37,340 bases of DNA from UHGV virus genome UHGV-0142298. The stretch is one strand, 5' to 3'. The position numbers and the translations under genes are program-made. Positions 2,457 through 37,323 of the stretch are shown piece by piece (position 1 is the stretch's first letter; every line of letters begins with the position of its first letter). The DNA is from a virus. Under the pieces are notes generated by a model that made no database searches, was not told where the DNA came from, and worked only from the letters and a program-made list of their open reading frames with translations.

Positions 2457-3079
2457 TGGTTGACTACTTCAATGTATCCTGTATCAACAATGAAAATGTC
2501 CGTTCTTCGCTCACAGAATTAGTGCGACAGCTTCGCACCAAGAGCTGACATTGTAATATCCGACAGGCTATTGCCTGTCAGTTAACAGTTACGTGTTATA
2601 AAAGGTCAGGCGGGATCCTGACTAGGTGTGTTTAAAGAAGTGCTGGTGGTGAGCGGGTGTTGTGTCCAATTTCCACAGAAAAAAATCTGAGAAACTATAC
2701 CCAATAGTTGTATTGAATCACTGACGAGACAGCCTCATATTTATCAGGACTGGTGTACTTCCAATTCAGGAGGTTGTCGTGCTGGTTCTCAAATGTGCGC
2801 TAGCTATTGCGGCTGTAATGGCAATTTATTGTCTTGCTGTTGTTCTTACGGATCGCCTTTCTGATTGATTTTATATTGGCGAGGTGACGTGAGTTAAGTA
2901 GAATTGCTGCGGGTGCTTGAGGCTATCTGCCTCAGGCATGAACACCAACGGCAGATAGAGAAAAGCCCCAGTTAACATTACGCGTCCTGCAAGACGCTTA
3001 ACATTAATCTGAGGCCAATTTCATGCTAGACACATGTAGGTTAGCCTCTTACGTGCCGGAAGGCAAGGAGAAGCAGGCT

Positions 3080-3235
3080 ATGAAGCAGCAAAAGGCGATG
3101 TTAATCGCCCTGATCGTCATCTGTTTAACCGTCATAGTGACGGCACTGGTAACGAGGAAAGACCTCTGCGAGGTACGAATCCGAACCGGCCAGACGGAGG
3201 TCGCTGTCTTCACAGCTTACGAACCTGAGGAGTAA
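3080..3235 (+). CDS. hokD: Hok/Gef-family membrane toxin (type I toxin)
   Basis: 51-aa product MKQQKAMLIALIVICLTVIVTALVTRKDLCEVRIRTGQTEVAVFTAYEPEE has the Hok signature (TM helix, LTRK.LCE.R, EVAAF..YE); the ORF track extends it upstream to 3023 (mok-like leader frame); intrinsic terminator follows. Confidence 0.8.
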   Translation: MKQQKAMLIALIVICLTVIVTALVTRKDLCEVRIRTGQTEVAVFTAYEPEE

Positions 3236-3299
3236 GAGACTAGGCGGGGGAGAAATCCCTCGCCACCTCTGATGAGTCAGGCATCCTCAATGCACCCGC

Positions 3300-3326
3300 G
3301 CTTAACCCGCTTCGGCGGGTTTTTCT
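3300..3326 (+). terminator. Intrinsic terminator downstream of hok
   Basis: AACCCGC-TTCG-GCGGGTT hairpin followed by a T-run. Confidence 0.6.
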
Positions 3327-3336
3327 AGCATCTACC

Positions 3337-3376
3337 TGGTTGACAAAGTCGATGTTAAATGGAAATATGGTTGACA
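3337..3376 (+). promoter_or_regulatory. Direct repeat TGGTTGACA x2 (31 bp apart) overlapping -35-like TTGACA boxes; candidate promoter/operator of the 3402-5158 operon
   Basis: TGGTTGACA at 3337-3345 and 3368-3376, immediately upstream of the ATG at 3402. Confidence 0.35.
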
Positions 3377-3401
3377 CCAAAACAACAAGGATATTACGGT
3401 C

Positions 3402-4016
3402 ATGCAGAATTTATCTCAACAGTTGTTAGAAGCATATGACAAGGAGTGCCGCAAAGAGCTTTCGATCGCGTTAGCACAGGCTTATCTTCATTCGCATATG
3501 AAGGCAAAAGAGTTTGGTTCTTTTTGGGCTCAAGCACAGTCATATTTGCGCTGGTTTTATGCCGATGCATTGCTTGAGAATGCGGCTAAGCGTGTGGGGC
3601 TGGATTTTGAAGTCGGTAGCAATGCTGCTAAAAATTGTAAACACATTGCGATTCACTCGAACAACTGGAAAATGACGGCACATCATTTATCGGGTAATGC
3701 GCCACTTCCTAAGCAGGCATTGTATAGAGCTGTTTACGCTAATCAAAATTATGAATTGAATTTTGGGGATGAAAATGCCGACTCCCTGGATGGGAGAGCG
3801 TCTGGTGGACATGTTTATATGTTACATGATGGCAGTAATCAGCACTTGTCCAAACTGAATTTAACTGTTCCTTCTTCGGATAATTACGGGATTCTTTATA
3901 CTGAGTCTTTACCAATTATGACGATGGTAGAAGTTGAAGCAGAAAATGTGGATTCTGAGATTGAAGATAAAATCAAGATTCTTACCGAACAAATAATTAA
4001 ATCACAGCAATCATGA
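3402..4016 (+). CDS. Hypothetical protein, first gene of a two-gene cassette (candidate effector/partner of the HTH-peptidase)
   Basis: 204-aa ORF; its stop overlaps the next start in ATGA (4013-4016), implying translational coupling; no recognisable domain or TM segment. Confidence 0.55.
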   Translation: MQNLSQQLLEAYDKECRKELSIALAQAYLHSHMKAKEFGSFWAQAQSYLRWFYADALLENAAKRVGLDFEVGSNAAKNCKHIAIHSNNWKMTAHHLSGNAPLPKQALYRAVYANQNYELNFGDENADSLDGRASGGHVYMLHDGSNQHLSKLNLTVPSSDNYGILYTESLPIMTMVEVEAENVDSEIEDKIKILTEQIIKSQQS

Positions 4017-5158
4017 GCATGAATATCGCACAAACACCATTTACTGATAAATCGTTTAATCCTCGTCGCCTTGAGGAGGCAAGAGAGGCAAAAGGGTTGA
4101 CGATGGCTGAACTTGCCAGAGTGCTCAATATTTCAAGACAAGCTATTTCGTCATTTGAGAAGGGGTTGAAGTCTCCCTCTGCTGATACACTTTCTGCAAT
4201 AGCCAAGGTGTTAGGATTTCCAGAACGATTTTTCTTAGCCTCCAGTGCTTCTCCATCTCTGGAGGGGGCGATTCATTTTAGAAGTCGTTCAACTGCGACC
4301 AAAAAGGCTCGAGTTACAGGGAAAACACGTGGGCGTTGGGCGGCATTAATATTGGATGAATGTCTAAAATATGCTCAATTACCAGATGTGGTTCTGCCTG
4401 AATTCGATATTATTGATTTTGAGGTTCTGTCTCTATCTGATATTGAGGATATGTCCACCCAATTAAGGCGTTTTTGGGGGTTAGGTGATGGTCCAATACT
4501 CAATTTAACTAGACTTGTTGAAAATAAAGGAATCGTGGTTTCTCATTTACCTTCTGGTGAGAAAGTTGATGCCTTTTCGTTCTGGCATAATGGGCGGCCT
4601 TTAATTATGTTAGATAGCTCGAAGACGGCTGTTCGCATGCGATTTAGTCTTGCTCATGAACTTGGCCATTTAATTATGCATAGGGCAGTGGAGGATGACT
4701 ACCTGAATGATAAAGAATTATTCGACCTGGTGGAGTTGCAGGCCGATTATTTTGCCTCCAGCTTTTTAATGCCAGCCACCACTTTCGGGCGTGAATTTTA
4801 TAGTCCAAATTTATCAGCGTTAGAACGATTAAAACTACGTTGGATTACATCTATCGGTAGTATTGCCATGAGGAGTCATAGCCTTAAGTTAATCAGCGAT
4901 AATCAGAAAAGCTATATATTTAAGCAATTAGCGCCATTCCATCGTAGGGAGCCGTTAGATGATGCAATCCCAAAAGAAGAGCCTGAGTTACTTAATAAGT
5001 TACTTTTACTTCTTGATAAGCATTCAATCATAAAGGTAACTGAGTTAACTGATATCTTTGCTCTTCCCTTAAATGAGTTATCTGCAATTACACGATTTAA
5101 AGAATCAGATATGATTCATTCTGACAATGTTATTTCATTTACCATAAAACAAAAATAA
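4013..5158 (+). CDS. HTH-XRE DNA-binding domain fused to an ImmA/IrrE-type (M78-like) zinc metallopeptidase
   Basis: N-terminal HTH (LTMAELARVLNISRQAISSFEKG); central HEXXH motif in SLAHELGHLIMH with a downstream acidic/aromatic segment (ELQADYFASSFLMP) typical of ImmA/IrrE peptidases. Confidence 0.75.
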   Translation: MSMNIAQTPFTDKSFNPRRLEEAREAKGLTMAELARVLNISRQAISSFEKGLKSPSADTLSAIAKVLGFPERFFLASSASPSLEGAIHFRSRSTATKKARVTGKTRGRWAALILDECLKYAQLPDVVLPEFDIIDFEVLSLSDIEDMSTQLRRFWGLGDGPILNLTRLVENKGIVVSHLPSGEKVDAFSFWHNGRPLIMLDSSKTAVRMRFSLAHELGHLIMHRAVEDDYLNDKELFDLVELQADYFASSFLMPATTFGREFYSPNLSALERLKLRWITSIGSIAMRSHSLKLISDNQKSYIFKQLAPFHRREPLDDAIPKEEPELLNKLLLLLDKHSIIKVTELTDIFALPLNELSAITRFKESDMIHSDNVISFTIKQK

Positions 5159-5167
5159 TTCTCATTC

Positions 5168-5195
5168 ATACCCGCCTCGGCGGGTTTTTGTTTTA
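5168..5195 (+). terminator. Intrinsic terminator after the HTH-peptidase gene
   Basis: CCCGCC-TC-GGCGGG hairpin plus TTTTTGTTTT; same hairpin family as the terminator after hok. Confidence 0.6.
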
Positions 5196-5505
5196 CGTAT
5201 TCTGGTTTACAATCCACAGGCCAGCCTGAACAACTGGCACCTGCTGCGCCAGCAGAGACAACCGATGGCGCACGATACCAAATTACACAATTCTGATGAT
5301 TCTGCCGTCTTTGCCAGCAGGCACGGGCGGCGCTCTCACGCATTTAAATCTGATTGGTACCAGCATCCCCCATGCACTGAAGAACAGGCCGAATGGCTGA
5401 TTCATTCTTACCGCAGGCGCGGGTTCGAGGTTAAGAAAGCTCTCAGTCTCGACTATCGGCACTGGATAATCTCTGTCAGGCTGCCTTATTCCGAACGCCC
5501 ACCAC

Positions 5506-6153
5506 GTGCGTCCCGCACTTTCCAGCAACGGATCTGGAGGTAACGTGCGGGTATTACTTAGACCTGTTCTGGTGCCAGAGCTTGGGCTGGTGGTCCTTAA
5601 ACTAGGCCGTGAATCCATGCCGGTATTCCACAATACCCGGGTACTGGTGGAGCCGGAACCGAAAAGCATGCGTAATCTGCCGTCCGGGGTCGTTCCTGCC
5701 GTTCGCCAGCCGCTGGTGGAAGACAAAACATTGCTGCCGTTTTTCAGTAACGCACGGGTGATTCGTGCTGCTGGTGGTGCTGGTGCATTGTCTGACTGGC
5801 TGTTGCGCCATATTAAATCCTGCCAGTGGCCGCACGGCGATTATCATCACAGCGAAACCGTCATTCACCGTTATGGTACCGGCGCAATGGTGTTGTGCTG
5901 GCACTGCGACAACCAACTGCGTGACCAGACATCCGAATCACTCGAGCAACTTGCTCATCAAAACCTGTCAGCATGGATGATTGACGTCATCGGTCACGCA
6001 ATAAGCGGTACGCAGGAGCGTGAATTATCTCTGGCTGAATTATCCTGGTGGGCGCTCCGCAATCAGGTGGCGGACGCGCTACCGGAAGCGGTATTACGTC
6101 GTTCGCTGGGATTACCAGCGGAAAATTCATACTATATTAGGAATAGTCCATAA
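5506..6153 (+). CDS. Hypothetical Cys/His-rich protein in the position of a late-gene regulator (possible Q-like antiterminator); start uncertain
   Basis: 215-aa ORF from GTG 5506 (alternative ATG 5620); contains HGDYHH...CWHCDNQ; a second frame (5265-5543) overlaps upstream, so a frameshifted or longer gene is possible. Confidence 0.3.
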   Translation: MRPALSSNGSGGNVRVLLRPVLVPELGLVVLKLGRESMPVFHNTRVLVEPEPKSMRNLPSGVVPAVRQPLVEDKTLLPFFSNARVIRAAGGAGALSDWLLRHIKSCQWPHGDYHHSETVIHRYGTGAMVLCWHCDNQLRDQTSESLEQLAHQNLSAWMIDVIGHAISGTQERELSLAELSWWALRNQVADALPEAVLRRSLGLPAENSYYIRNSP

Positions 6154-6243
6154 CAGAAAAATTGTCAGTGATGACGTCAGAAAGGCAATTTATTCCGTGC
6201 ACTACACAGTTTATGTGTTAATGAATTAGTCAAGGGGGAGGAT

Positions 6244-7203
6244 ATGATAAAAAAACCTGTGATTGGAATCAGCGGTTGTTTGGCCGGTTCTGCTGTTCGT
6301 TTTGATGGTGGTCACAAAAGAGCTGACTTTTTAATGGACAAATTAGTGGAATGGGTAACATTCAGACCAGTATGTCCGGAAATGGCTATAGGGCTGCCAG
6401 TTCCGCGTCCTGCTCTACGTCTTGTGCGCTCGAAGCAAGGAAATATACGGATGTGTTTCAGCCACGACCAGAATGAGGATGTGACAGAGAGAATGACAGA
6501 GTTTAGTCGTTCTTATATGCACAAATTAAAGGATGTATCGGGGTTTGTGGTTTGTGCTAAATCTCCCAGCTGTGGCATGGAGCGCGTGCGTGTCTATGAT
6601 GAAAATGGTAATCGAGGTCGTAAAGATGGAGTGGGACTATTTACGAGCACTTTGATGGAAAAGTTTTCCTGGCTACCGGTTGAAGAGGATGGGCGATTAC
6701 ATGATCCAGTGCTTCGTGAGAATTTTGTTGAAAGAGTTTTTGCTTTGCATGAGCTCAATCACCTTTACAAGGAGAAATTATCAAGAAGAGAGTTATTAGC
6801 TTTTCATAGTCGTTATAAGCTTCAGTTGTTGGCGCATAGTCAGGCAGGCTATAAAGATATGGGACCATTTGTGGCTGCAATACACGAGTGGGCGGACCTT
6901 GAATCATACTTTGAGGTGTATCGTGATAAGCTGATGGCGATTCTCAGAAAACCTGCATCACGTAAAAATCACACGAATGTGCTGATGCATATACAGGGGT
7001 ATTTTAGTAATTACTTAAGTACACGCCAGCGTAAAGAGTTGACCGAGGTTATACTTAACTATCGCTTTGGCACATTGCCTCTTCTTGCGCCGTTGACTCT
7101 GCTGAAGCATTATCTGGGTGAGTATCCTAATGATTACTTGCTTACACAGAATTACTTCGATCCCTATCCGGAAGAACTGGCTCTAAGACTGATGGTGAAT
7201 TAA
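6244..7203 (+). CDS. DUF523/DUF1722-like fusion protein (TudS-like thiouracil desulfidase family candidate)
   Basis: 319-aa ORF with RBS GGGGGAGG; N-terminus KPVIGISGCLAGSAVRFDGGHK resembles the DUF523 Cys-containing signature; family assignment is from memory. Confidence 0.6.
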   Translation: MIKKPVIGISGCLAGSAVRFDGGHKRADFLMDKLVEWVTFRPVCPEMAIGLPVPRPALRLVRSKQGNIRMCFSHDQNEDVTERMTEFSRSYMHKLKDVSGFVVCAKSPSCGMERVRVYDENGNRGRKDGVGLFTSTLMEKFSWLPVEEDGRLHDPVLRENFVERVFALHELNHLYKEKLSRRELLAFHSRYKLQLLAHSQAGYKDMGPFVAAIHEWADLESYFEVYRDKLMAILRKPASRKNHTNVLMHIQGYFSNYLSTRQRKELTEVILNYRFGTLPLLAPLTLLKHYLGEYPNDYLLTQNYFDPYPEELALRLMVN

Positions 7204-9606: not shown

Positions 9607-10634
<1,028 letters not shown>

Positions 10635-10997
10635 ATTAATATTAAATCGGATTATTTTTAGCGCTGAATGTGAAATTTAAATAAAAAGGACTCTTCCATG
10701 AGTCAAAATCCTTGAAATCTTAAGGGTAAGATAAAAGGTCATTAGACAGAATGACACGTTTTATTAATAAATAAAGCTATTGTTTCATTCGTGTGTTTTT
10801 CTTTACAAAAGTAATCCTTGCTATGGTTGGTTAATCATGCGTTAATGGTGTTCTGGTTTGTTACAAAATTATCTGAAGCAGTCATTGTTATAATTTTATT
10901 ATTTGTACCTCTTGAGATTTCCTTGTTGGTTTTTCTCTCTGATATTTTTTTTCGGACCATTCTGCCCAAGGGCTAACTTCTTCAAAAGGTAATAATG

Positions 10998-11210
10998 ATG
11001 TCTAACAAAATGACTGGTTTAGTGAAATGGTTTAACCCTGAAAAAGGTTTTGGTTTCATCACGCCGAAAGATGGTAGCAAAGATGTGTTTGTCCATTTCT
11101 CAGCTATTCAGAGCAACGATTTCAAAACGTTAACTGAGAATCAGGAAGTCGAATTTGGTATTGAGAACGGACCTAAAGGCCCCGCGGCTGTTCATGTTGT
11201 GGCACTTTGA
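10998..11210 (+). CDS. cspI: Cold-shock protein (CspA family)
   Basis: [23 protein letters not shown]...VFVHFSAIQ contains the RNP1/RNP2 motifs of CspA-family proteins; long AT-rich leader upstream (10640-10995). Confidence 0.8.
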
Positions 11211-11409
11211 GGTAGATAATATTACAAACCATATTCACTTTAGATGCCCGTGTTGCCATGGTTCTCAGTATAGAACATCATCTTTTGATGTTTCTGACAG
11301 GAATCCTTTCGGGGCAAAATGTATCTTTTGTAAATCAATGATGATTACATTTGATAATATTTCACAATACTTAAATGTTAGCCGTCTATCGTTAGATTTA
11401 AGAAAGTGA
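11194..11409 (+). CDS. Possible small zinc-ribbon protein
   Basis: ORF with CPCCHG...CIFC spacing, ending just before a strong terminator; start unclear and overlaps the cspI 3' end. Confidence 0.2.
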
Positions 11410-11411
11410 AA

Positions 11412-11440
11412 ATGAAGGCTCCTTCGGGAGCTTTTTTTCT
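11412..11440 (+). terminator. Intrinsic terminator
   Basis: GAAGGCTCC-TTCG-GGAGCTT hairpin followed by a T7 run. Confidence 0.65.
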
Positions 11441-11481
11441 TAGTGTCTAGTCGATGGATACTCACATAATACGGTAACATT

Positions 11482-11712
11482 ATGAAAAAAATAATAGTTT
11501 TTTTTAACTCTGAACCAGCAATGGTAGTGCCAGTGATGACCGGAGTTAACACCATCATGCGTGAATATCCAAATGGCGAAACAACACACCTCACTGTAAT
11601 GGCTGCAGGGTTTCCATCTCTGACCGGAGATCATAAAGTCATTTATGTAGCAGCGGATCGACATGTAACTTCAGAAGAAATTCTGGAAGCAGCAATGAGA
11701 CTCTTGAATTGA
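11482..11712 (+). CDS. Hypothetical protein
   Basis: 76-aa ORF in the AT-rich post-lysis accessory region; no motif. Confidence 0.35.
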   Translation: MKKIIVFFNSEPAMVVPVMTGVNTIMREYPNGETTHLTVMAAGFPSLTGDHKVIYVAADRHVTSEEILEAAMRLLN

Positions 11713-28030: not shown

Positions 28031-28090
28031 TGAAAAACGTTTTATGTGAAACCGCCTCCGGGCGGTTTTGTCGTTTATGGAGCGTTAGGA

Positions 28091-31000
28091 ATGGGTAAAG
28101 GCAGCAGTAAGGGGCATACTCCGCGCGAAGCGAAGGACAACCTGAAGTCCACGCAGTTGCTGAGTGTGATCGATGCCATCAGCGAAGGGCCGGTTGAAGG
28201 TCCGGTAGATGGATTAAAAAGCGTGCTGCTGAACAGTACGCCAGTGCTGGACATTGAGGGGAATACCAACATCTCCGGCGTCACGGTGGTGTTCCGGGCC
28301 GGTGAGCAGGAGCAAACACCGCCGGAGGGATTTGAATCCTCCGGCTCCGAGACGGTGCTGGGTACGGAAGTGAAATACGACACGCCGATCACCCGGACCA
28401 TCACGTCGGCAAACATTGACCGACTGCGTTTTACCTTCGGCGTGCAGGCACTGGTGGAAACCACCTCAAAGGGGGACAGGAATCCGTCGGAAGTCCGCCT
28501 GCTGGTTCAGATACAACGTAACGGTGGCTGGGTGACGGAAAAAGACATCACCATTAAAGGCAAAACCACCTCACAGTATCTGGCCTCGGTGGTGGTGGGT
28601 AACCTGCCGCCGCGCCCGTTCAATATCCGGATGCGCAGGATGACGCCGGACAGCACCACAGACCAACTGCAGAACAAAACGCTCTGGTCGTCATACACCG
28701 AAATCATCGATGTGAAACAGTGCTACCCGAACACGGCACTGGTCGGCGTACAGGTGGACTCGGAGCAGTTCGGCAGCCAGCAGGTGAGCCGTAATTATCA
28801 TCTTCGCGGGCGCATTCTGCAGGTGCCGTCGAACTATAACCCGCAGACGCGGCAATACAGCGGTATCTGGGACGGAACGTTTAAGCCAGCATACAGCAAC
28901 AACATGGCCTGGTGTCTGTGGGATATGCTGACCCATCCGCGCTACGGCATGGGGAAACGTCTTGGTGCGGCAGATGTGGATAAATGGGCGCTGTATGTCA
29001 TCGGCCAGAATTGCGACCAGTCAGTGCCGGACGGCTTTGGCGGCACGGAGCCGCGCATCACCTGTAATGCGTACCTGACCACACAGCGCAAGGCGTGGGA
29101 TGTGCTCAGTGATTTTTGCTCGGCGATGCGCTGTATGCCGGTATGGAACGGGCAGACGCTGACATTCGTGCAGGACCGACCGTCGGATAAGGTGTGGACC
29201 TATAACCGCAGTAATGTGGTGATGCCGGATGATGGCGCGCCGTTCCGCTACAGCTTCAGCGCCCTGAAAGACCGCCATAATGCCGTTGAGGTGAACTGGA
29301 TTGACCCGGATAACGGCTGGGAGACGGCGACAGAGCTTGTGGAGGACACGCAGGCCATTGCCCGTTACGGTCGTAACGTCACGAAGATGGATGCCTTTGG
29401 CTGTACCAGCCGGGGGCAGGCACACCGCGCCGGGCTGTGGCTGATTAAAACGGAGCTGCTGGAAACGCAGACCGTGGACTTCAGCGTGGGTGCAGAAGGG
29501 CTTCGCCATGTACCGGGCGATGTCATTGAAATCTGTGATGATGACTATGCCGGTATCAGCATCGGTGGTCGCGTGCTGGCGGTGAACAGCCAGACCCGGA
29601 CGCTGACGCTCGACCGTGAAATCACGCTGCCATCCTCCGGTACCACGCTGATAAGCCTGGTTGACGGAAGTGGCAATCCGGTCAGCGTGGAGGTTCAGTC
29701 CGTCACCGACGGCGTGAAGGTAAAAGTGAGCCGTGTTCCTGACGGTGTTGCTGAATACAGCGTATGGGGGCTGAAGCTGCCGACGCTGCGCCAGCGTCTG
29801 TTCCGCTGTGTGAGTATCCGTGAGAACGATGACGGTACGTATGCCATCACTGCCGTGCAGCATGTACCGGAGAAAGAAGCCATCGTGGATAACGGGGCGC
29901 ACTTTGACGGTGACCAGAGCGGCACGGTGAATGGTGTCACGCCGCCAGCAGTGCAGCACCTGACCGCAGAAGTCACTGCAGACAGCGGGGAATATCAGGT
30001 GCTGGCGCGATGGGACACACCGAAGGTGGTGAAGGGCGTGAGCTTCCTGCTTCGCCTGACCGTGGCAGCGGATGACGGCAGTGAGCGGCTGGTCAGCACG
30101 GCCCGGACGACGGAAACCACATACCGCTTCAGGCAACTGGCGCTGGGGAACTACAGGCTGACAGTCCGGGCGGTAAATGCGTGGGGGCAGCAGGGCGATC
30201 CGGCATCGGTATCGTTCCGGATTGCCGCACCGGCAGCGCCGTCGCAGATTGAGCTGACACCGGGGTATTTTCAGATAACCGCCACGCCGCATCTTGCGGT
30301 TTATGATCCGACGGTACAGTTTGAGTTCTGGTTCTCGGAAAAACGGATTGCTGATATCAGGCAGGTTGAAACCAGCGCGCGTTATCTTGGTACGGCGCTG
30401 TACTGGATAGCCGCCAGTATCAATATCAAACCGGGTCGTGATTATTACTTTTATATCCGCAGTGTGAACACCGTCGGCAAATCGGCATTCGTGGAGGCTG
30501 TTGGTCGGGCGAGCGATGATGCGGAAGGTTACCTGGATTTTTTCAAAGGCCAGATAACCGAATCCCATCTCGGCAAGGAGCTGCTGGAAAAAGTCGAGCT
30601 GACGGAGGATAACGCCAGCAGACTGGAGGAGTTTTCGAAAGAGTGGAAGGACGCCAGTGATAAGTGGAATGCCATGTGGGGCGTCAAAATTGAGCAGACC
30701 AAAGACGGCAAACATTATGTCGCGGGTATTGGCCTCAGTATGGAGGATACAGAGGAAGGCAAACTGAGTCAGTTTCTGGTTGCCGCCAATCGTATCGCGT
30801 TTATTGACCCGGCAAACGGGAATGAAACGCCGATGTTTGTGGCGCAGGGCAACCAGATATTCATGAACGACGTGTTCCTGAAACGCCTGACGGCCCCCAC
30901 CATTACCAGCGGCGGTAATCCTCCGGCATTTTCCCTGACACCGGATGGGCGGCTGACGGCGAAAAATGCCGATATCAGCGGTAACGTGAATGCGAACTCC

Positions 31001-31486
31001 GGGACGCTCAACAACGTCACGATTAACGAGAACTGTCGGGTTCTGGGAAAACTGTCCGCGAACCAGATTGAAGGCGATCTCGTTAAAACAGTGGGCAAAG
31101 CTTTCCCCCGGGACTCCCGTGCACCGGAGCGGTGGCCATCAGGGACCATTACCGTCAGGGTTTATGACGATCAGCCGTTTGACCGGCAGATTGTTATTCC
31201 GGCGGTGGCATTCAGCGGCGCTAAACATGAGAGAGAGCATACTGATATTTACTCCTCATGCCGTCTGATAGTGCGGAAAAACGGTGCTGAAATTTATAAC
31301 CGTACCGCGCTGGATAATACGCTGATTTACAGTGGCGTTATTGATATGCCTGCCGGTCACGGTCACATGACGCTGGAGTTTTCGGTGTCAGCATGGCTGG
31401 TAAATGACTGGTATCCCACAGCAAGTATCAGCGATTTGCTGGTTGTGGTGATGAAGAAAGCCACCGCAGGCATCAGTATCAGCTGA
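28091..31486 (+). CDS. Host specificity / central tail fibre protein J
   Basis: About 1130 aa, N-terminus [24 protein letters not shown] as lambda J; followed by a terminator. Confidence 0.9.
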
Positions 31487-31553: not shown

Positions 31554-32153
31554 ATGCGTAAAGTTTGTGCAGCCATTTTGTCCGCAGCCATCTGTCTGTC
31601 CGTATCCGGTGCGCCTGCATGGGCATCTGAACATCAGTCCACGCTGAGCGCGGGGTATCTTCATGCCTCGACGAACGTTCCCGGCAGCGATGATCTTAAC
31701 GGGATTAACGTGAAATACCGTTATGAGTTTACGGACACACTGGGGCTGGTGACGTCATTCAGCTATGCAGGAGACAAGAATCGCCAGCTTACCCGTTACA
31801 GCAATACCCGCTGGCATGAAGATTCCGTGCGTAACCGCTGGTTCAGCGTGATGGTGGGGCCGTCTGTGCGCGTGAATGAATGGTTCAGCGCGTATGCGAT
31901 GGCGGGTATGGCTTACAGCCGTGTGTCGACTTTTTCCGGGGATTATCTCCGCGTAACTGACAATAAGGGGAAAACGCACGATGTGCTGACCGGAAGTGAT
32001 GACGGTCGCCACAGCAACACGTCTCTGGCGTGGGGAGCTGGCGTGCAGTTTAACCCGACCGAATCCGTGGCCATTGATATTGCTTATGAAGGCTCCGGCA
32101 GTGGTGACTGGCGCACTGACGGTTTCATCGTGGGTGTCGGTTATAAATTCTGA
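31554..32153 (+). CDS. lom: Lom/Ail-family outer membrane beta-barrel protein
   Basis: 199 aa with signal peptide, alternating-residue beta-strands, C-terminal GYKF; position after J as in lambda. Confidence 0.85.
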
Positions 32154-32207: not shown

Positions 32208-32217
32208 TGGAGTGGAT

Positions 32218-34623
32218 ATGGCAGCAGTAAAAATCTCAGGTGTGCTGAAAGATGGTGCGGGAAAACCAATACAGAACTGCACTATTCAACTGAAGGCAAA
32301 GCGTAACAGCACCACGGTACTGGTGAACACGGTGGCTTCTGAAAATCCGGATGAAGCCGGACGTTACAGCATGGATGTTGAGTATGGCCAGTACAGCGTC
32401 ACCCTGCTGGTTGAAGGTTTTCCGCCTTCACATGCCGGGACCATTACCGTCTATGAAGGCTCCAGACCAGGTACGCTGAATGATTTTCTCGGTGCCATGA
32501 CGGAAGATGATGTCATGCCGGAGGCATTGCGTCGTTTTGAGGCAATGGTGGAAGAAGTGGCACGCAACGCCGAAGCCGCCTCTCAGAGCGCAGCGGCGGC
32601 AAAGAAATCCGAAACTGCAGCGGCATCATCAAAGAACGCGGCGAAAACCTCAGAAACGAATGCAGCTAATAGTGCACAGGCGGCAGCGACCTCAAAGACT
32701 GCATCGGCAAACTCCGCGACAGCAGCCAAAAAATCAGAAACCAACGCGAAAAATAGCGAGACAGCCGCAAAGACGAGCGAAACCAACGCAAAGTCCAGCC
32801 AGACGGCAGCGAAAACCAGCGAAACGAATGCCAAAGCCAGTGAAACTGCGGCAAAAAACAGCCAGGTTGCAGCAGCCCAAAGCGAGAGCGCGGCAGCCGG
32901 TTCTGCGACTTCAGCAGCTGGATCAGCAACTGCTGCGGCTAACAGCCAGAAAGCTGCGAAGACGAGTGAAACTAACGCAAAGTCCAGCCAGACGGCAGCG
33001 AAGACCAGCGAAACGAATGCCAAAGCCAGTGAAACTGCGGCGAAAAGCAGTCAGGATGCAGCGGCCCAAAGCGAGAGTGCCGCAGCCAGTTCTGCAAGCG
33101 CGGCGGCTGCTTCTGCCACTGCATCAGCTAACAGTCAAAAAGCAGCAAAAACCAGTGAAACCAACGCAAAGGCGAGCGAGACTGCGGCGGCGAACTCGGC
33201 GCAAGCATCGGCAGCAAGCCAGACAGCAGCTAAAGCAAGTGAAGACGCAGCCAGAGAGTATGCAAGCCAGGCAGCGGAGCCGTATAAACAAGTTTTGCAG
33301 CCGTTGCCCGATGTGTGGATACCGTTTAATGATTCACTGGATATGATTACGGGCTTTTCGCCATCATATAAAAAAATTGTTATTGGCGACGATGAAATAA
33401 CAATGCCTGGCGACAAGATTGTAAAGTTTAAACGCGCATCGAAAGCAACTTACATTAATAAATCTGGTGTGCTGACAGAGGCTGCCATTGACGAGCCACG
33501 ATTTGAACGTGATGGCCTGCTTATTGAGGGGCAAAGAACTAACCTGCTAATCAATTCAACAAATCCGACTAAATGGAACAAGTCGTCAAATATGATCTTA
33601 AGTGCATCAGGTGTAGATGATTTCGGATTCCAGTACGCAAAATTTACATTAAAACCAGAAATGGTAGGGCAAATTTCAGCGATTAACATAGTAACCGTTT
33701 CCGGCAGTAAAGGTTTTGATGTAACAGGCGGAGAAAAGTATGTAACCATATCATGCAGGGTGCAAAGTGGCACTCCAAATTTAAGATGCCGATTACGATT
33801 TGAAAACTATGATGGTTCTACCTACACATTCTTAGGTGACGCTTACTTAAATACGACAGATTTATCTATTGATAAGACGGGTGGTGCCGCTAATCGCATT
33901 ACTGCAAGGGCTGTTAAAGATGAAGCAAGCAAATGGATCTTTTTTGAGGCGACAATTAAGGCACTTGATACAGAAAATATGATAGGTGGAATGGTTCAGT
34001 ATGCCCCGGCAAAAGGAGTGGGCACTGGCGCGGATGATTATATTTATATTGCGACCCCTCAAGTTGAAGGTGGGGCGTGCGCTTCATCGTTTATTATAAC
34101 AGGCGCATCCCCTGTAACACGCGCCAGCGATATTGTAACGGTCCCCATTTCTCTAAATTGGTGCAATCCCGCTATTAGTTCATTAGCAGAAGTTAATACC
34201 AATTGGGATGAATCGCCAAACAAAGAAGGTAGCGCACGTATTCTTAATATTTCCACTACGGGAGATACAACTGAAATTGCAGATGAAAGTTATATGTATT
34301 TGGGGTATACATCTTTGGGAGCACGCGCAATCATTACAAATGGTAAAGGCACTAAAATAGAATATAAAAGCGTTATAGAACGACCAGAGAGAAAAAGTAT
34401 TATCGGCTTTAGATTCACAGAAAGTCGAGAATTGTGTGTTGTGGTTAACGGTAATATTGGTGCTAAGGTAGTTTCTCCTTATAAAAAACACAAATATACA
34501 GGAGGCTTCATTAATATTGGTGGTCAATCATCATCCGGCAACCGTCACCTATTTGGACACGTTCGAAATCTGCGTATTTGGCACAAGGCATTGACTGATG
34601 CTCAGATGGGGGAGTCAATCTAA
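32218..34623 (+). CDS. stf: Side tail fibre protein (Stf-like) with internal repeats and a divergent AT-rich C-terminal receptor-binding region
   Basis: N-terminus MAAVKISGVLKDGAGKPIQNCTIQLKAKRNSTT matches lambda Stf; middle part is imperfect AAKTSETNAKASETAAK repeats; base composition drops sharply from about 33300. Confidence 0.8.
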   Translation: MAAVKISGVLKDGAGKPIQNCTIQLKAKRNSTTVLVNTVASENPDEAGRYSMDVEYGQYSVTLLVEGFPPSHAGTITVYEGSRPGTLNDFLGAMTEDDVMPEALRRFEAMVEEVARNAEAASQSAAAAKKSETAAASSKNAAKTSETNAANSAQAAATSKTASANSATAAKKSETNAKNSETAAKTSETNAKSSQTAAKTSETNAKASETAAKNSQVAAAQSESAAAGSATSAAGSATAAANSQKAAKTSETNAKSSQTAAKTSETNAKASETAAKSSQDAAAQSESAAASSASAAAASATASANSQKAAKTSETNAKASETAAANSAQASAASQTAAKASEDAAREYASQAAEPYKQVLQPLPDVWIPFNDSLDMITGFSPSYKKIVIGDDEITMPGDKIVKFKRASKATYINKSGVLTEAAIDEPRFERDGLLIEGQRTNLLINSTNPTKWNKSSNMILSASGVDDFGFQYAKFTLKPEMVGQISAINIVTVSGSKGFDVTGGEKYVTISCRVQSGTPNLRCRLRFENYDGSTYTFLGDAYLNTTDLSIDKTGGAANRITARAVKDEASKWIFFEATIKALDTENMIGGMVQYAPAKGVGTGADDYIYIATPQVEGGACASSFIITGASPVTRASDIVTVPISLNWCNPAISSLAEVNTNWDESPNKEGSARILNISTTGDTTEIADESYMYLGYTSLGARAIITNGKGTKIEYKSVIERPERKSIIGFRFTESRELCVVVNGNIGAKVVSPYKKHKYTGGFINIGGQSSSGNRHLFGHVRNLRIWHKALTDAQMGESI
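32560..33250 (+). repeat. Imperfect tandem and long direct repeats inside stf
   Basis: About 150-bp near-identical direct repeats (roughly 32770-32920 and 32950-33100) built from shorter repeat units. Confidence 0.7.
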
Positions 34624-34904
34624 TGAAAGATTTAACACTCAAATTTGCCGACAGGGCCGACTTTTCGGCCTTTATGGGAAGTATTGGCTATTATAATGAC
34701 GAGTCGATGCAGGATGATATTCTGATTGATGTGATAGGTAACGTGTACAAAGAAACCGGAGAGCTGACTGAAGATGGCGAACCGGTATGTGTTAAGGAAG
34801 ATGGATATTTTGTAAACGTGCGCATCATTAAGGATACGCAAATATCGTCATTATTCGATGAATACGCGGTTGCTGTTGAGCATCAACTTCGTGGCTGGAT
34901 GTGA
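34623..34904 (+). CDS. Hypothetical small protein coupled to stf (possible fibre chaperone)
   Basis: 93-aa ORF whose ATG overlaps the stf stop (TAATG); acidic; does not resemble lambda Tfa. Confidence 0.4.
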   Translation: MKDLTLKFADRADFSAFMGSIGYYNDESMQDDILIDVIGNVYKETGELTEDGEPVCVKEDGYFVNVRIIKDTQISSLFDEYAVAVEHQLRGWM

Positions 34905-34913
34905 GGTAGAGAA

Positions 34914-35618
34914 ATGGCTACATCAACAGTAATTCCGGGAGACATCACCACGCTGAAGGGAGATGTTAGTAAAGCAAAGGAAGATATTTCCTCTATTAAC
35001 GGAAAAGTATCAACGCTTCAGACTGATATGGCCAGTGCAAAGCAGGATATCAGCACCAGATACACAAAAACTGAAGTTGATAATAAGCTGAAAAACAAAG
35101 TGGAAGTGAACGATCTGGAAAGTGGTCGTTATGGCGGAGATTTTTACCCGCTGACTGGCCGTGAAGCGTTTTATTTATGGGGATTGGGCACAACTACAGC
35201 GGCGGCAAATCTTTATCTTAATCCTGACCCTGCAATTTCGTCTGTGCTGCGGTCAACATCGTCTATCCGCTATAAACATTCAGTAGAGACGATAGATTCA
35301 GAGCACGCCGATCTCATTTTCAGGATGCGCCCTGTGTGGTACAGGTCGCAATGCGAAAATGACAGGCGTGACTGGGGATTCTATGGATTGATTGCCGAGG
35401 AAGTTGGAGAAATTGCCCCTCAGTTTGTTCACTGGCGACCAGCCAACGAAGATGATGCACCGGAAACCATTTCCAGCAATGGCCTTGTTGCCGAAGGTGT
35501 AATGTACGAACGTCTGGTTGTTCCACTGATTCACCATATCCAGAAGCTGACTGAAAGAGTTGATGAACTTGAGTCAGAATTAAAGTTGTTATCCGTTTCC
35601 CGAAGCGATATCGGATAA
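34914..35618 (+). CDS. Fibre-like protein with C-terminal intramolecular chaperone domain (peptidase S74-like)
   Basis: N-terminal coiled-coil; C-terminal segment SSIRYKHSV...WGFYGLIAEEVGEIAPQFV...YERLVVPLIHHIQKLTERVDELESELKLL fits the S-D-x-R-x-K ... IAQEV ... LLIEAIKEL pattern of auto-cleaving fibre chaperone domains. Confidence 0.55.
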   Translation: MATSTVIPGDITTLKGDVSKAKEDISSINGKVSTLQTDMASAKQDISTRYTKTEVDNKLKNKVEVNDLESGRYGGDFYPLTGREAFYLWGLGTTTAAANLYLNPDPAISSVLRSTSSIRYKHSVETIDSEHADLIFRMRPVWYRSQCENDRRDWGFYGLIAEEVGEIAPQFVHWRPANEDDAPETISSNGLVAEGVMYERLVVPLIHHIQKLTERVDELESELKLLSVSRSDIG

Positions 35619-35628
35619 AGGAGGCGTA

Positions 35629-35922
35629 ATGGATATAACACCTTTCCTTCATGCACTTTGTGCTGTGGCTGCGCAGGTACTGGTTGGTCTTTTTACCGGA
35701 AACTGGGCTTACGGGGCGATAGCTGGTTGTACGTTCTTCATTGCGCGTGAACATACCCAGGCAGAATATCGCTGGATTGAAATGTTCGGGCATGGCAAGC
35801 GAATGAATATGCCGTGGTGGGGCGGTTTTGATCCGCGAGCTTGGGATGTGGCAAGCCTGATGGATTTTGCTGTGCCGGTGGTGGCGTGTCTGCTGGTCTG
35901 GCTGTTGGTTAATCGTGGGTGA
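35629..35922 (+). CDS. Small predicted membrane protein
   Basis: 97 aa with hydrophobic segments at both ends; RBS GGAGG upstream. Confidence 0.35.
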   Translation: MDITPFLHALCAVAAQVLVGLFTGNWAYGAIAGCTFFIAREHTQAEYRWIEMFGHGKRMNMPWWGGFDPRAWDVASLMDFAVPVVACLLVWLLVNRG

Positions 35923-36149
35923 AAAAAGGTGAGCTGTATATGCAACGGAGGAAGAAACCTCGTTGCGGGAAGCCTTGAAGAAGTATCGGGTGTTGCTGAA
36001 CCGTGTTGATACGTCAACTGCACAGGATATTGAATGGCCAGCACTGCCGTAGGGTAAAACATATAAATTCTATAATTAGATGTATCTTTCCATTTACGGC
36101 AAGGAAGGGGGCTTGGAAGACGTAAGGCATCTCACACCGAGATTATTTT

Positions 36150-36740
36150 TTATATGTCAGGTGTCTGAAGTTTTGCTTTGGCTCTTAAAATGGTTTGCCG
36201 CGAGGTTTTGAATTCCCGGGCAATGGCACTTATACTTACACCTGACTTAATCCGTTCGAATACCACCTGTTTCTGTTCTTCATTTAACACAGGTGGTCGA
36301 CCAAAACGTTTCCCTGCGCCCCGGGCTCTTACTATCCCGGAATGAGTGCGTTCAAGTAAAAGGTCTCGTTCAAATTCAGCGACTGCTGAAATTACTTGCA
36401 TCATCATTTTTCCTGTTGGACTGGTCAGGTCAATGCCCCCCAATGCTAAGCAATGCACTCTGATACCTGTTTCGGTCAGTTGTTCCACTGTTTTCCTGAT
36501 ATCCATTGCATTACAACCAAGGCGATCCAGTTTTGTCACAATCAATTGATCACCACATTTCAGGCGAGCAAGCAACCGGTTAAAACCAGGACGCTCACTG
36601 GTTGCTGCTGAGCCGCTAATGTGTTCTTCGATTATTTGCTGAGGTTTGATTTTAAAACCTGCACTTTCGATTTCCCGGCGTTGATTTTCGGTGGTCTGAT
36701 CCAGCGTTGATATCCGACAGTAAGCAAAAATTCGAGACAT
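36150..36740 (-). CDS. Serine recombinase (DNA invertase/resolvase family)
   Basis: N-terminal catalytic motif ([12 protein letters not shown]), central conserved block, C-terminal HTH; 196 aa, typical invertase size. Confidence 0.8.
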
Positions 36741-37056
36741 AGTGAGACTCTATACGAAATTGGTGTTCATATCATAATGCATCTCAGAAAATAATTTTGA
36801 TTATTTTTGTGCATGTTTGTATGTACACGTTCGAAAATAAACGAATGCGTATGCAACCCCGTAATTTTGGTGAGACCCAAAATCGATTTTGTGAAAAATG
36901 GCTTTAACTCGGTTTGTTTTTCGAGTTCCGGGCGGACTCAAGGAAGAAGAATAGTGTTGCGTGTTATTTTAACCAGATTTCAAGTTGTTTGGTCGTGGAA
37001 AAGTGGAGCAAAATGTTGTTAAAGTGGAAAAATGATAAAAAAGTAAGTTTATTATA

Positions 37057-37323
37057 TTACATTTTACCATTTAAATTTTGGTTGTCTTTAAGAACTGATA
37101 TCGCTGTTTGTAATAATTCTTTGTTATCCAGCCATGATTTTTTCTTTATGTTTCCTTCAATGTAATCAAGCAATGTTCTGGTATTGATAGGTCTTCCCTG
37201 TTTTGCTACTTCCACTACAGCATCCCCTAGGATAATTCTGACTTCAGGAAGCTGCGCAGGGAACCACTTTAGGGTGTCTTTTGATTTCATGAATATATTC
37301 CTTAAAATATTATTGATTTTCAT
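37057..37323 (-). CDS. Hypothetical small protein upstream of the invertase
   Basis: 88-aa minus-strand ORF (alternative start about 37290) separated from the invertase by a 316-bp AT-rich gap. Confidence 0.3.
   Translation of the reverse strand: MKINNILRNIFMKSKDTLKWFPAQLPEVRIILGDAVVEVAKQGRPINTRTLLDYIEGNIKKKSWLDNKELLQTAISVLKDNQNLNGKM

Follow-up and report, generated by a model that had tools for sequence, protein, structure and literature searches.

The serine recombinase gene near the right end of the UHGV virus genome UHGV-0142298 is very probably a relic of a small Tn3-family transposon, left with no substrate in cis and probably encoding a weak recombinase at best. The gene is pinQ, well known from E. 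coli prophages, and its product is the orthologue of K-12 PinQ. The gene is already known; what is added here is its recognition as a Tn3-family transposon remnant in which both the active site and the res site are compromised. Comparison of the locus with its relatives at the sequence level shows that the gene descends from a transposon, where the transposon-derived cassette begins and ends, that a target in cis is absent and that an active-site arginine has been replaced by cysteine. The 37,340 nucleotides analysed are referred to below as the window, and the features discussed are collected in Table 1. The original prediction for this DNA had placed a serine invertase at 35923-36780; an intact recombinase gene does lie in that interval, although the interval also takes in intergenic DNA and a tfa remnant.

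Table 1. Features of the pinQ locus and of the adjoining tail genes (coordinates of the window).
Feature	Coordinates	Strand	Basis
J, lambdoid prophage gene	28046-31486		ORF, Pfam, PHROG
lom, lambdoid prophage gene	31554-32153		ORF, Pfam, PHROG
Side tail fibre module, none invertible	32212-35922	+	ORFs, Pfam, PHROG
stf, side tail fibre gene	32212-34623	+	ORF, Pfam, PHROG
Small ORFs after stf: 93 aa; 234 aa (fibre domain, S74 chaperone domain); 97 aa (membrane)		+	
tfaQ 3' remnant, last 36 codons, 111 nt	35942-36052	+	K-12 tfaQ alignment, translations, RefSeq
Decayed right terminal inverted repeat, abutting/overlapping the pinQ stop codon	36104-36152	-	Alignment of relatives
pinQ, 196-aa small serine recombinase, intact ORF	36150-36740	-	ORF, Pfam, K-12 alignment
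pinQ codon 76, TGT (Cys), at the R71 position of Tn3/gamma-delta (motif LDRLG-R, second Arg of LDRLGR)	36513-36515	-	
pinQ codon 11, catalytic Ser (= gamma-delta S10), kept	36708-36710	-	
res remnant upstream of pinQ	36752-36855	-	Half-site matches at the distances found in relatives
Site III-like half-site TTTCGTAT	36752-36759		
Degenerate site II half TTTCTGAG	36783-36790		
Degenerate site II half GCACAAAA	36803-36812		
Site I right half TTTCGAAC	36829-36836		
Site I left half, unrecognisable	36844-36855		
ydfK (YnaE/YdfK family cold-shock protein)	37057-37290	-	RefSeq on identical locus, PHROG 2718

The locus corresponds to the right end of a lambdoid prophage of the Qin site. A 2.7-kb query taken from the right end of the window was matched over its full length in 283 complete genomes of E. 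coli (identity up to 99.9%), and pinQ is the RefSeq name of the recombinase gene in these near-identical genomes. In a 99.9% identical genome the prophage occupies ydfJ, which is the Qin site, and only about 0.7 kb of it extends past the window, the order being ydfK, ynfT and then the split ydfJ. No fibre cassette is therefore concealed there, and the suggestion that the target of the enzyme might lie beyond the window was not borne out for the rest of the prophage. In derivatives of strain EC0026B the 34.6-37.3 kb region is split by IS2, so that the match falls into two pieces over 4.1 kb. A PADLOC search of five neighbouring proteins gave zero matches.

The tfaQ remnant lies between the 97-aa ORF and pinQ, with the stf-93aa-234aa-97aa module upstream of it; its counterpart in the 99.9% identical genome has the RefSeq annotation partial tail fiber assembly protein. 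As only 36 codons of tfaQ are left, an older stf-tfa pair must have been replaced by recombination, with a breakpoint at about 35941. In phage HannyBb (PinQ 100% identical) and phage Turner (99%), the fibre genes are followed directly by pinQ and then by small ORFs and int/att. The presence of the same stf-tfa-pinQ layout in these isolated phages indicates that the arrangement is native to functional phages and is no decayed oddity of K-12. The stf gene of a near-identical genome (locus 9619-11622) is a RefSeq pseudogene without its C-terminus, with an end equivalent to about 34221 in the window, where the stf ORF runs for 803 uninterrupted codons to 34623. The 234-aa ORF (34914-35618, plus strand) matches only the last ~240 of the 1385 positions of fibre family phrog_3299; over its first 32 residues it aligns with the N-terminus of a different fibre family. 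The product resembles a small independent fibre bearing an S74 intramolecular chaperone domain, and its counterpart in HannyBb is 343 aa long.

No invertible fibre segment is available to pinQ in cis: none lies in the window, and none in the ~0.7 kb by which the prophage extends past it. The 32.2-35.9 kb region is filled by plus-strand genes, and its minus-strand ORFs are all short and overlap these genes, which agrees with the earlier remark that it holds no convincing minus-strand ORFs; the proposal that the enzyme is orphaned likewise stands. Inverted-repeat crossover sites, thought worth seeking on both sides of the gene and also past the window, did not emerge, as only chance-level pairs occur within 7 kb. 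Such pairs were 17-28 nt long and 70-88% complementary in the 30.0-37.3 kb part of the window, and the equivalent region and prophage end of the 99.9% identical genome gave chance-level pairs only. The best pair (34740-34756 / 36815-36831) matched at 15/17 positions, and the inverted junction that it would produce, constructed in silico, was found in 0/5426 complete E. coli genomes. Din-type crossover patterns (the e14 pixL 26-mer, AAACCNNGGTTT and TCNNNAAACC) gave nothing above chance across the whole 37-kb window, from which 26-bp inverted crossover sites with an AAACC-NN-GGTTT core are also absent. Res-type dimer and half-site patterns were likewise at chance level across the window except for the res remnant itself, with no intact dimer site elsewhere. 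A crossover-like half-site had been pointed out just after the membrane-protein gene. This sequence, GAAGAAACCTCG (its actual position being 35951-35962), is coding DNA of the tfaQ remnant, in which it encodes E-E-T-S; no dyad partner was found for it, K-12 has AAATC instead of AAACC at the same spot, and it was rejected as a crossover half-site.

The pinQ product has a Resolvase domain (PF00239, E 2.5e-36) and a C-terminal HTH_7 domain (PF02796, E 3.8e-11), with sub-threshold matches only in NCBIfam, and 194/196 of its residues are identical to those of E. coli K-12 PinQ. The protein is indeed a serine recombinase encoded beside a fibre module, as had been predicted, but its kinship is with the TnpR family and not with the fibre-flipping invertases. 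It shares 72-84% identity with TnpR-like proteins of Tn3-family transposons and plasmids, 38% with each of PinE and Gin, which are 78% identical to one another, and 33-37% with the gamma-delta and Tn3 resolvases (gamma-delta 33%). The recognition helix SRQTILRAK (T-S-R-Q-T-I-L-R-A) is of the type found in the TnpR relatives, the Din type being VSTLYK (G-V/L-S-T-L-Y). A Gin/Cin/Pin/Hin-type invertase was rejected as an identification for PinQ, given the 38% identity, the TnpR-type helix and the lack of crossover sites. By descent, pinQ is a Tn3-family tnpR.

Proteins 78-85% identical to PinQ are common outside prophages of this kind, and more than 1800 plasmids carry them. On one plasmid of Klebsiella and one of Shewanella, such a relative is encoded divergently from a transposase of the Tn3 family ("ISSba14 family"), with about 160 bp between the two genes. 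Two further cluster representatives, with 78% and 80% identity to PinQ, were sampled at 12 places: at 8/12 the complete gene of a 994-aa DUF4158+DDE_Tnp_Tn3 protein stood 159 bp away, and at three more a truncated DUF4158 fragment of it was left. Divergent pairs of a tnpR whose product is 78-85% identical to PinQ and, 159 bp away, a gene for such a 994-aa transposase are carried by Klebsiella, Shewanella, Hafnia-type and E. albertii contigs. Grouping with transposon resolvases, which the original prediction had named as the outcome that would count against an invertase, is thus what the relatives display. The 5' end of tnpA is still present beside IncI/K-type plasmid copies and one copy from a Yersinia plasmid, and in Erwinia plasmid pEA29 a relative lies near parA/parG.

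In E. albertii, an 84% identical gene belongs to a minimal element of ~3.8 kb, found both on an IncFII plasmid and within the thi operon of the chromosome. Its terminal inverted repeats are 57 nt long and start with GGGG, and the target duplication that flanks it is 5 bp long (TTCAA). Terminal inverted repeats and a 5-bp target duplication are hallmarks of Tn3-family transposition. In E. albertii GCA_028622655.1 (locus 2818-6642) the element consists of tnpA, res and tnpR only, and the second copy is on an IncFII plasmid. This ~3.8-kb transposon appears to have been recently mobile.

Remnants of such an element can be recognised on both sides of pinQ. In the E. albertii, Shewanella and IncI-plasmid relatives, an identical inverted repeat of ~50 nt begins at the tnpR stop codon, and the flanking sequences cease to agree precisely where its GGGG tip is reached. 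Both the window and K-12 match this right inverted repeat at ~70% identity, and the homology again ends at the tip. A second terminal inverted repeat (IRL) was not found in the window at up to three mismatches, a weak test because the decayed right repeat would itself fail at that threshold. On the other side of the gene, the 159-bp tnpA-tnpR spacer of the relatives contains three subsites made of GTCCGAAA/TTTCGGAC half-sites. These are a site I-like dyad of 24-26 bp at about -133/-117, nearest tnpA, a site II-like dyad of 30-32 bp at about -93/-71, and a third res element at about -53/-40. In Tn3 the order is also site I, site II, site III and then tnpR.

The half-sites upstream of pinQ keep the spacing of the relatives with 1-3 mismatches, and site II lacks the CG core in both halves. 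The two halves of site I agree at ~5/12 positions in the window vs ~9/12 in the relatives. The 5' homology to the transposons stops within res site I, beyond which the DNA toward ydfK is phage DNA; nothing aligns with tnpA upstream of the res remnant, and by ydfK, the phage gene upstream of the cassette, the transposon homology is already over. The flank alignments thus define a cassette, at ~36104-36855, composed of the right terminal inverted repeat, tnpR, res sites III and II, and half of site I. A perfect 14-bp palindrome, CAAAATCGATTTTG, is located at 36878-36891, between ydfK and the res remnant and just beyond the transposon-homologous region.

A scan for promoters and terminators around pinQ gave weak consensus matches only. 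The 165 bp upstream of the gene (36741-36905) are ~97% identical to the corresponding positions 1-164 of a sister prophage allele whose product is 85% identical, and the synonymous divergence between the coding regions of these two alleles is 0.22. Regulatory constraint could account for this upstream conservation, as could recombination that made the flanks mosaic.

The active site of PinQ has changed at a catalytic position. Of 13 positions compared in the catalytic pocket of gamma-delta/Tn3 resolvase, 11 are identical in PinQ (Y6, R8, S10, Q14, Q19, R45, D67, R68, E118, R119 and R125, in resolvase numbering). At the D36 position the whole PinQ/TnpR-like clade has Glu, and the R71 position is changed in PinQ alone. 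Among the 120 best homologue cluster representatives, 112 have Arg at the R71 position, and Cys is found there only in the prophage PinQ/PinR clade and the sister prophage allele (85% identical). Of E. coli records, 2550 contain an exact copy of a 60-mer around the TGT codon, and not one contains its CGT version. The R71A and R71K mutants of Tn3 resolvase gave no detectable recombination and cleaved DNA ~1000-fold more slowly, the mutants being described as "not inert" (PMC2794168).

One E. coli genome, GCA_910593615.1 (locus 5780-6591), has a prophage pinQ allele with Arg at position 76. This allele is a mosaic, in which the proximal promoter and the 5' part of the coding region are identical to E. 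albertii tnpR and the remainder is of the PinQ type, a structure that indicates gene conversion between transposon and prophage copies. The dN/dS ratio is 0.37 between the two Cys-bearing prophage alleles, 0.13-0.15 when PinQ is compared with transposon or plasmid copies, and 0.04-0.08 when those copies are compared with each other. By these ratios, selection on prophage pinQ is relaxed.

In the simplest history, a small Tn3-family element would have inserted just downstream of tfa in an ancestral lambdoid phage, and a deletion that stopped on one side at res site I or close to it would then have removed the tnpA side. The survivors at ~36104-36855 are the right terminal inverted repeat, tnpR (now pinQ) and the tnpR-proximal part of res; the transposase gene, the left end and the working crossover site, res site I, have been lost. 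With these gone, pinQ is left without a substrate in cis and can neither flip fibre genes nor resolve anything at its own locus. PinQ would be a weak recombinase at best and may act mainly by binding the residual subsites over its own promoter, in an autoregulation such as resolvases exert. Any physiological effects of PinQ would probably be exerted in trans. A point against a mere relic is that Cys76 may leave residual activity, as the "not inert" behaviour of the Tn3 R71 mutants would allow (PMC2794168). The gene is also intact in thousands of genomes with dN/dS below 1, and this, together with the 97% conserved 165 bp upstream, suggests a retained function.

A role in trans has been described for the K-12 protein. 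Overproduction of K-12 PinQ raised inversion of the P segment of prophage e14 from ~30% to 88% (Kirigo et al., NAR 2025, PMC12529663). According to that paper, the inversion creates a chimeric fibre protein, StfE2, which blocks adsorption of phage T2, deletion of pinQ lowered both inversion and survival of T2 infection, and the effect of PinQ was absent without e14 or without the inverted repeats (PMC12529663). PinQ might accordingly be an active invertase that works in trans on Din-type segments of other prophages, such as the e14 P segment in K-12, and so produces StfE2. These experiments concern a protein 99% identical to that of the window; they speak for some kind of activity of the protein, and they fit the option, already raised by the original prediction, that the target lies elsewhere. 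The crossover site of the PinQ/TnpR clade (26 bp, inner ...CGAAAAC-NN-GTTTTCG...) is, moreover, similar to Din-type sites: clade half-sites (xCCGAAAAC) resemble the pix half-sites (TCCCAAACC / CTCGAAAACC) and both types of site are 26 bp long, which makes binding of PinQ to pix sites plausible. Direct inversion by PinQ nevertheless seems rather doubtful. The P segment is locked in a pinE mutant, which implies that native PinQ and PinR leave it uninverted when PinE is missing, and the text consulted reports no experiment with catalytically dead PinQ or with PinQ in a delta-pinE background (PMC12529663). The protein has Cys at the catalytic R71 position and a recognition helix of the TnpR and not the Din type, and the window has no Din-type site. 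Taken together, the sequence features of PinQ call for caution over direct catalysis of e14 inversion. The K-12-type P segment with pinE is covered to at least 80% in 170/5426 genomes (288 records at at least 99% identity), and pinQ-type genes occur in 2733 genomes, about half of the complete E. coli genomes; inversion of a segment so much rarer than pinQ cannot be the general role of the enzyme.

Alternatively, PinQ and PinR could be catalytically crippled resolvases (R71C, fixed in E. coli prophages) that have been exapted as sequence-specific DNA-binding proteins and repress their own promoters through the residual res subsites; the effect described for the P segment would then be non-catalytic, for instance through binding to pix or partnering with PinE. 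This is offered tentatively. A transcriptional repression effect attributed to PinR in a 2022 preprint is weakly in line with a DNA-binding role. That PinQ is still a working resolvase, with a diverged functional res upstream, serving to resolve phage or prophage multimers or to recombine two prophages with the cassette, such as Rac and Qin, is improbable. The tnpR-res descent, the preserved spacing of the subsites and the high conservation of the upstream region in the prophage clade would suit such a function, but the site I dyad has been lost (~5/12 vs ~9/12), site II is without its CG cores, R71 is Cys, and lambdoid phages do not need dimer resolution. In the BLAST survey of the 2025 paper, inversions were found in e14 only and not in Rac or Qin (PMC12529663). 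Still harder to sustain, and very unlikely indeed, is an origin as a fibre-switching invertase that lost its invertible segment in an exchange of the fibre module, with the tfa remnant as the scar. The remnant does show that the upstream fibre module was replaced, and pinQ is placed relative to the fibre genes as pin, gin and cin are; the identity to Din invertases is, however, only 38%, a Tn3-family terminal inverted repeat and res remnants flank the gene, and in K-12, in Rac-type prophages, in HannyBb and in Turner pinQ comes immediately after tfa and a second fibre set is absent. A relic of a Tn3-family transposon thus remains the preferred account of pinQ.

The labels "DNA invertase" and "Pin" on this common prophage gene imply a switching of fibres that is impossible for pinQ here. 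The anti-phage mechanism published in 2025 rests on PinQ as an active invertase (PMC12529663). That report does not mention the kinship with TnpR, the fixed Cys76, the TnpR-type helix or how seldom pinQ carriers have the P segment (PMC12529663); if it is true that PinQ and PinR are non-catalytic, the published mechanism would need revision. More broadly, the case of pinQ illustrates how fragments of mobile elements turn into fixed passengers of the "moron" regions of phages.

Among known systems, the Din family (Gin of Mu, Cin of P1, PinE of e14, and Hin) resembles PinQ in being composed of small serine recombinases with a C-terminal HTH and in the placement of its genes after phage tail fibre genes, and Gin is the best PDB sequence match of PinQ (105 bits vs 83 for gamma-delta resolvase). 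PinQ differs from this family in sharing only 36-38% identity with it, in having another recognition helix, and in lacking an invertible segment or 26-bp inverted crossover sites nearby. With the gamma-delta and Tn3 resolvases it shares the fold and the catalytic residues apart from R71, and the tnpA-res(I, II, III)-tnpR logic of these elements is found in its relatives; at 33-37% identity, the PinQ clade forms a separate deep branch of TnpR.

To PinQ and PinR of E. coli lambdoid prophages (PinR being encoded by the Rac prophage) the protein of the window is near-identical in sequence, and its gene shares their conserved position between tfa and ydfK/ynaE. K-12 PinQ itself (b1545, Qin prophage) has the same tfa-pinQ-ydfK position at the ydfJ-proximal end of the prophage, the same Cys76, and the same non-coding DNA upstream and downstream. 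Compared with K-12 Qin, the prophage in the window has had its fibre module replaced and its tfaQ truncated, and it is far more complete, with J, lom and the tail genes present. On the transposon side, the nearest system is the TnpR of ISSba14-type elements, which are minimal (~3.8 kb) in E. albertii and carry passengers in Klebsiella/Hafnia plasmids. These proteins agree with PinQ in 78-85% identity, in the recognition helix, in the junction between the gene end and the terminal inverted repeat, and in the order and spacing of the res subsites. What separates the pinQ locus from them is the loss of tnpA and the left inverted repeat, the lost dyad of site I, the change of the catalytic Arg to Cys, and a dN/dS ratio 5-8 times higher.
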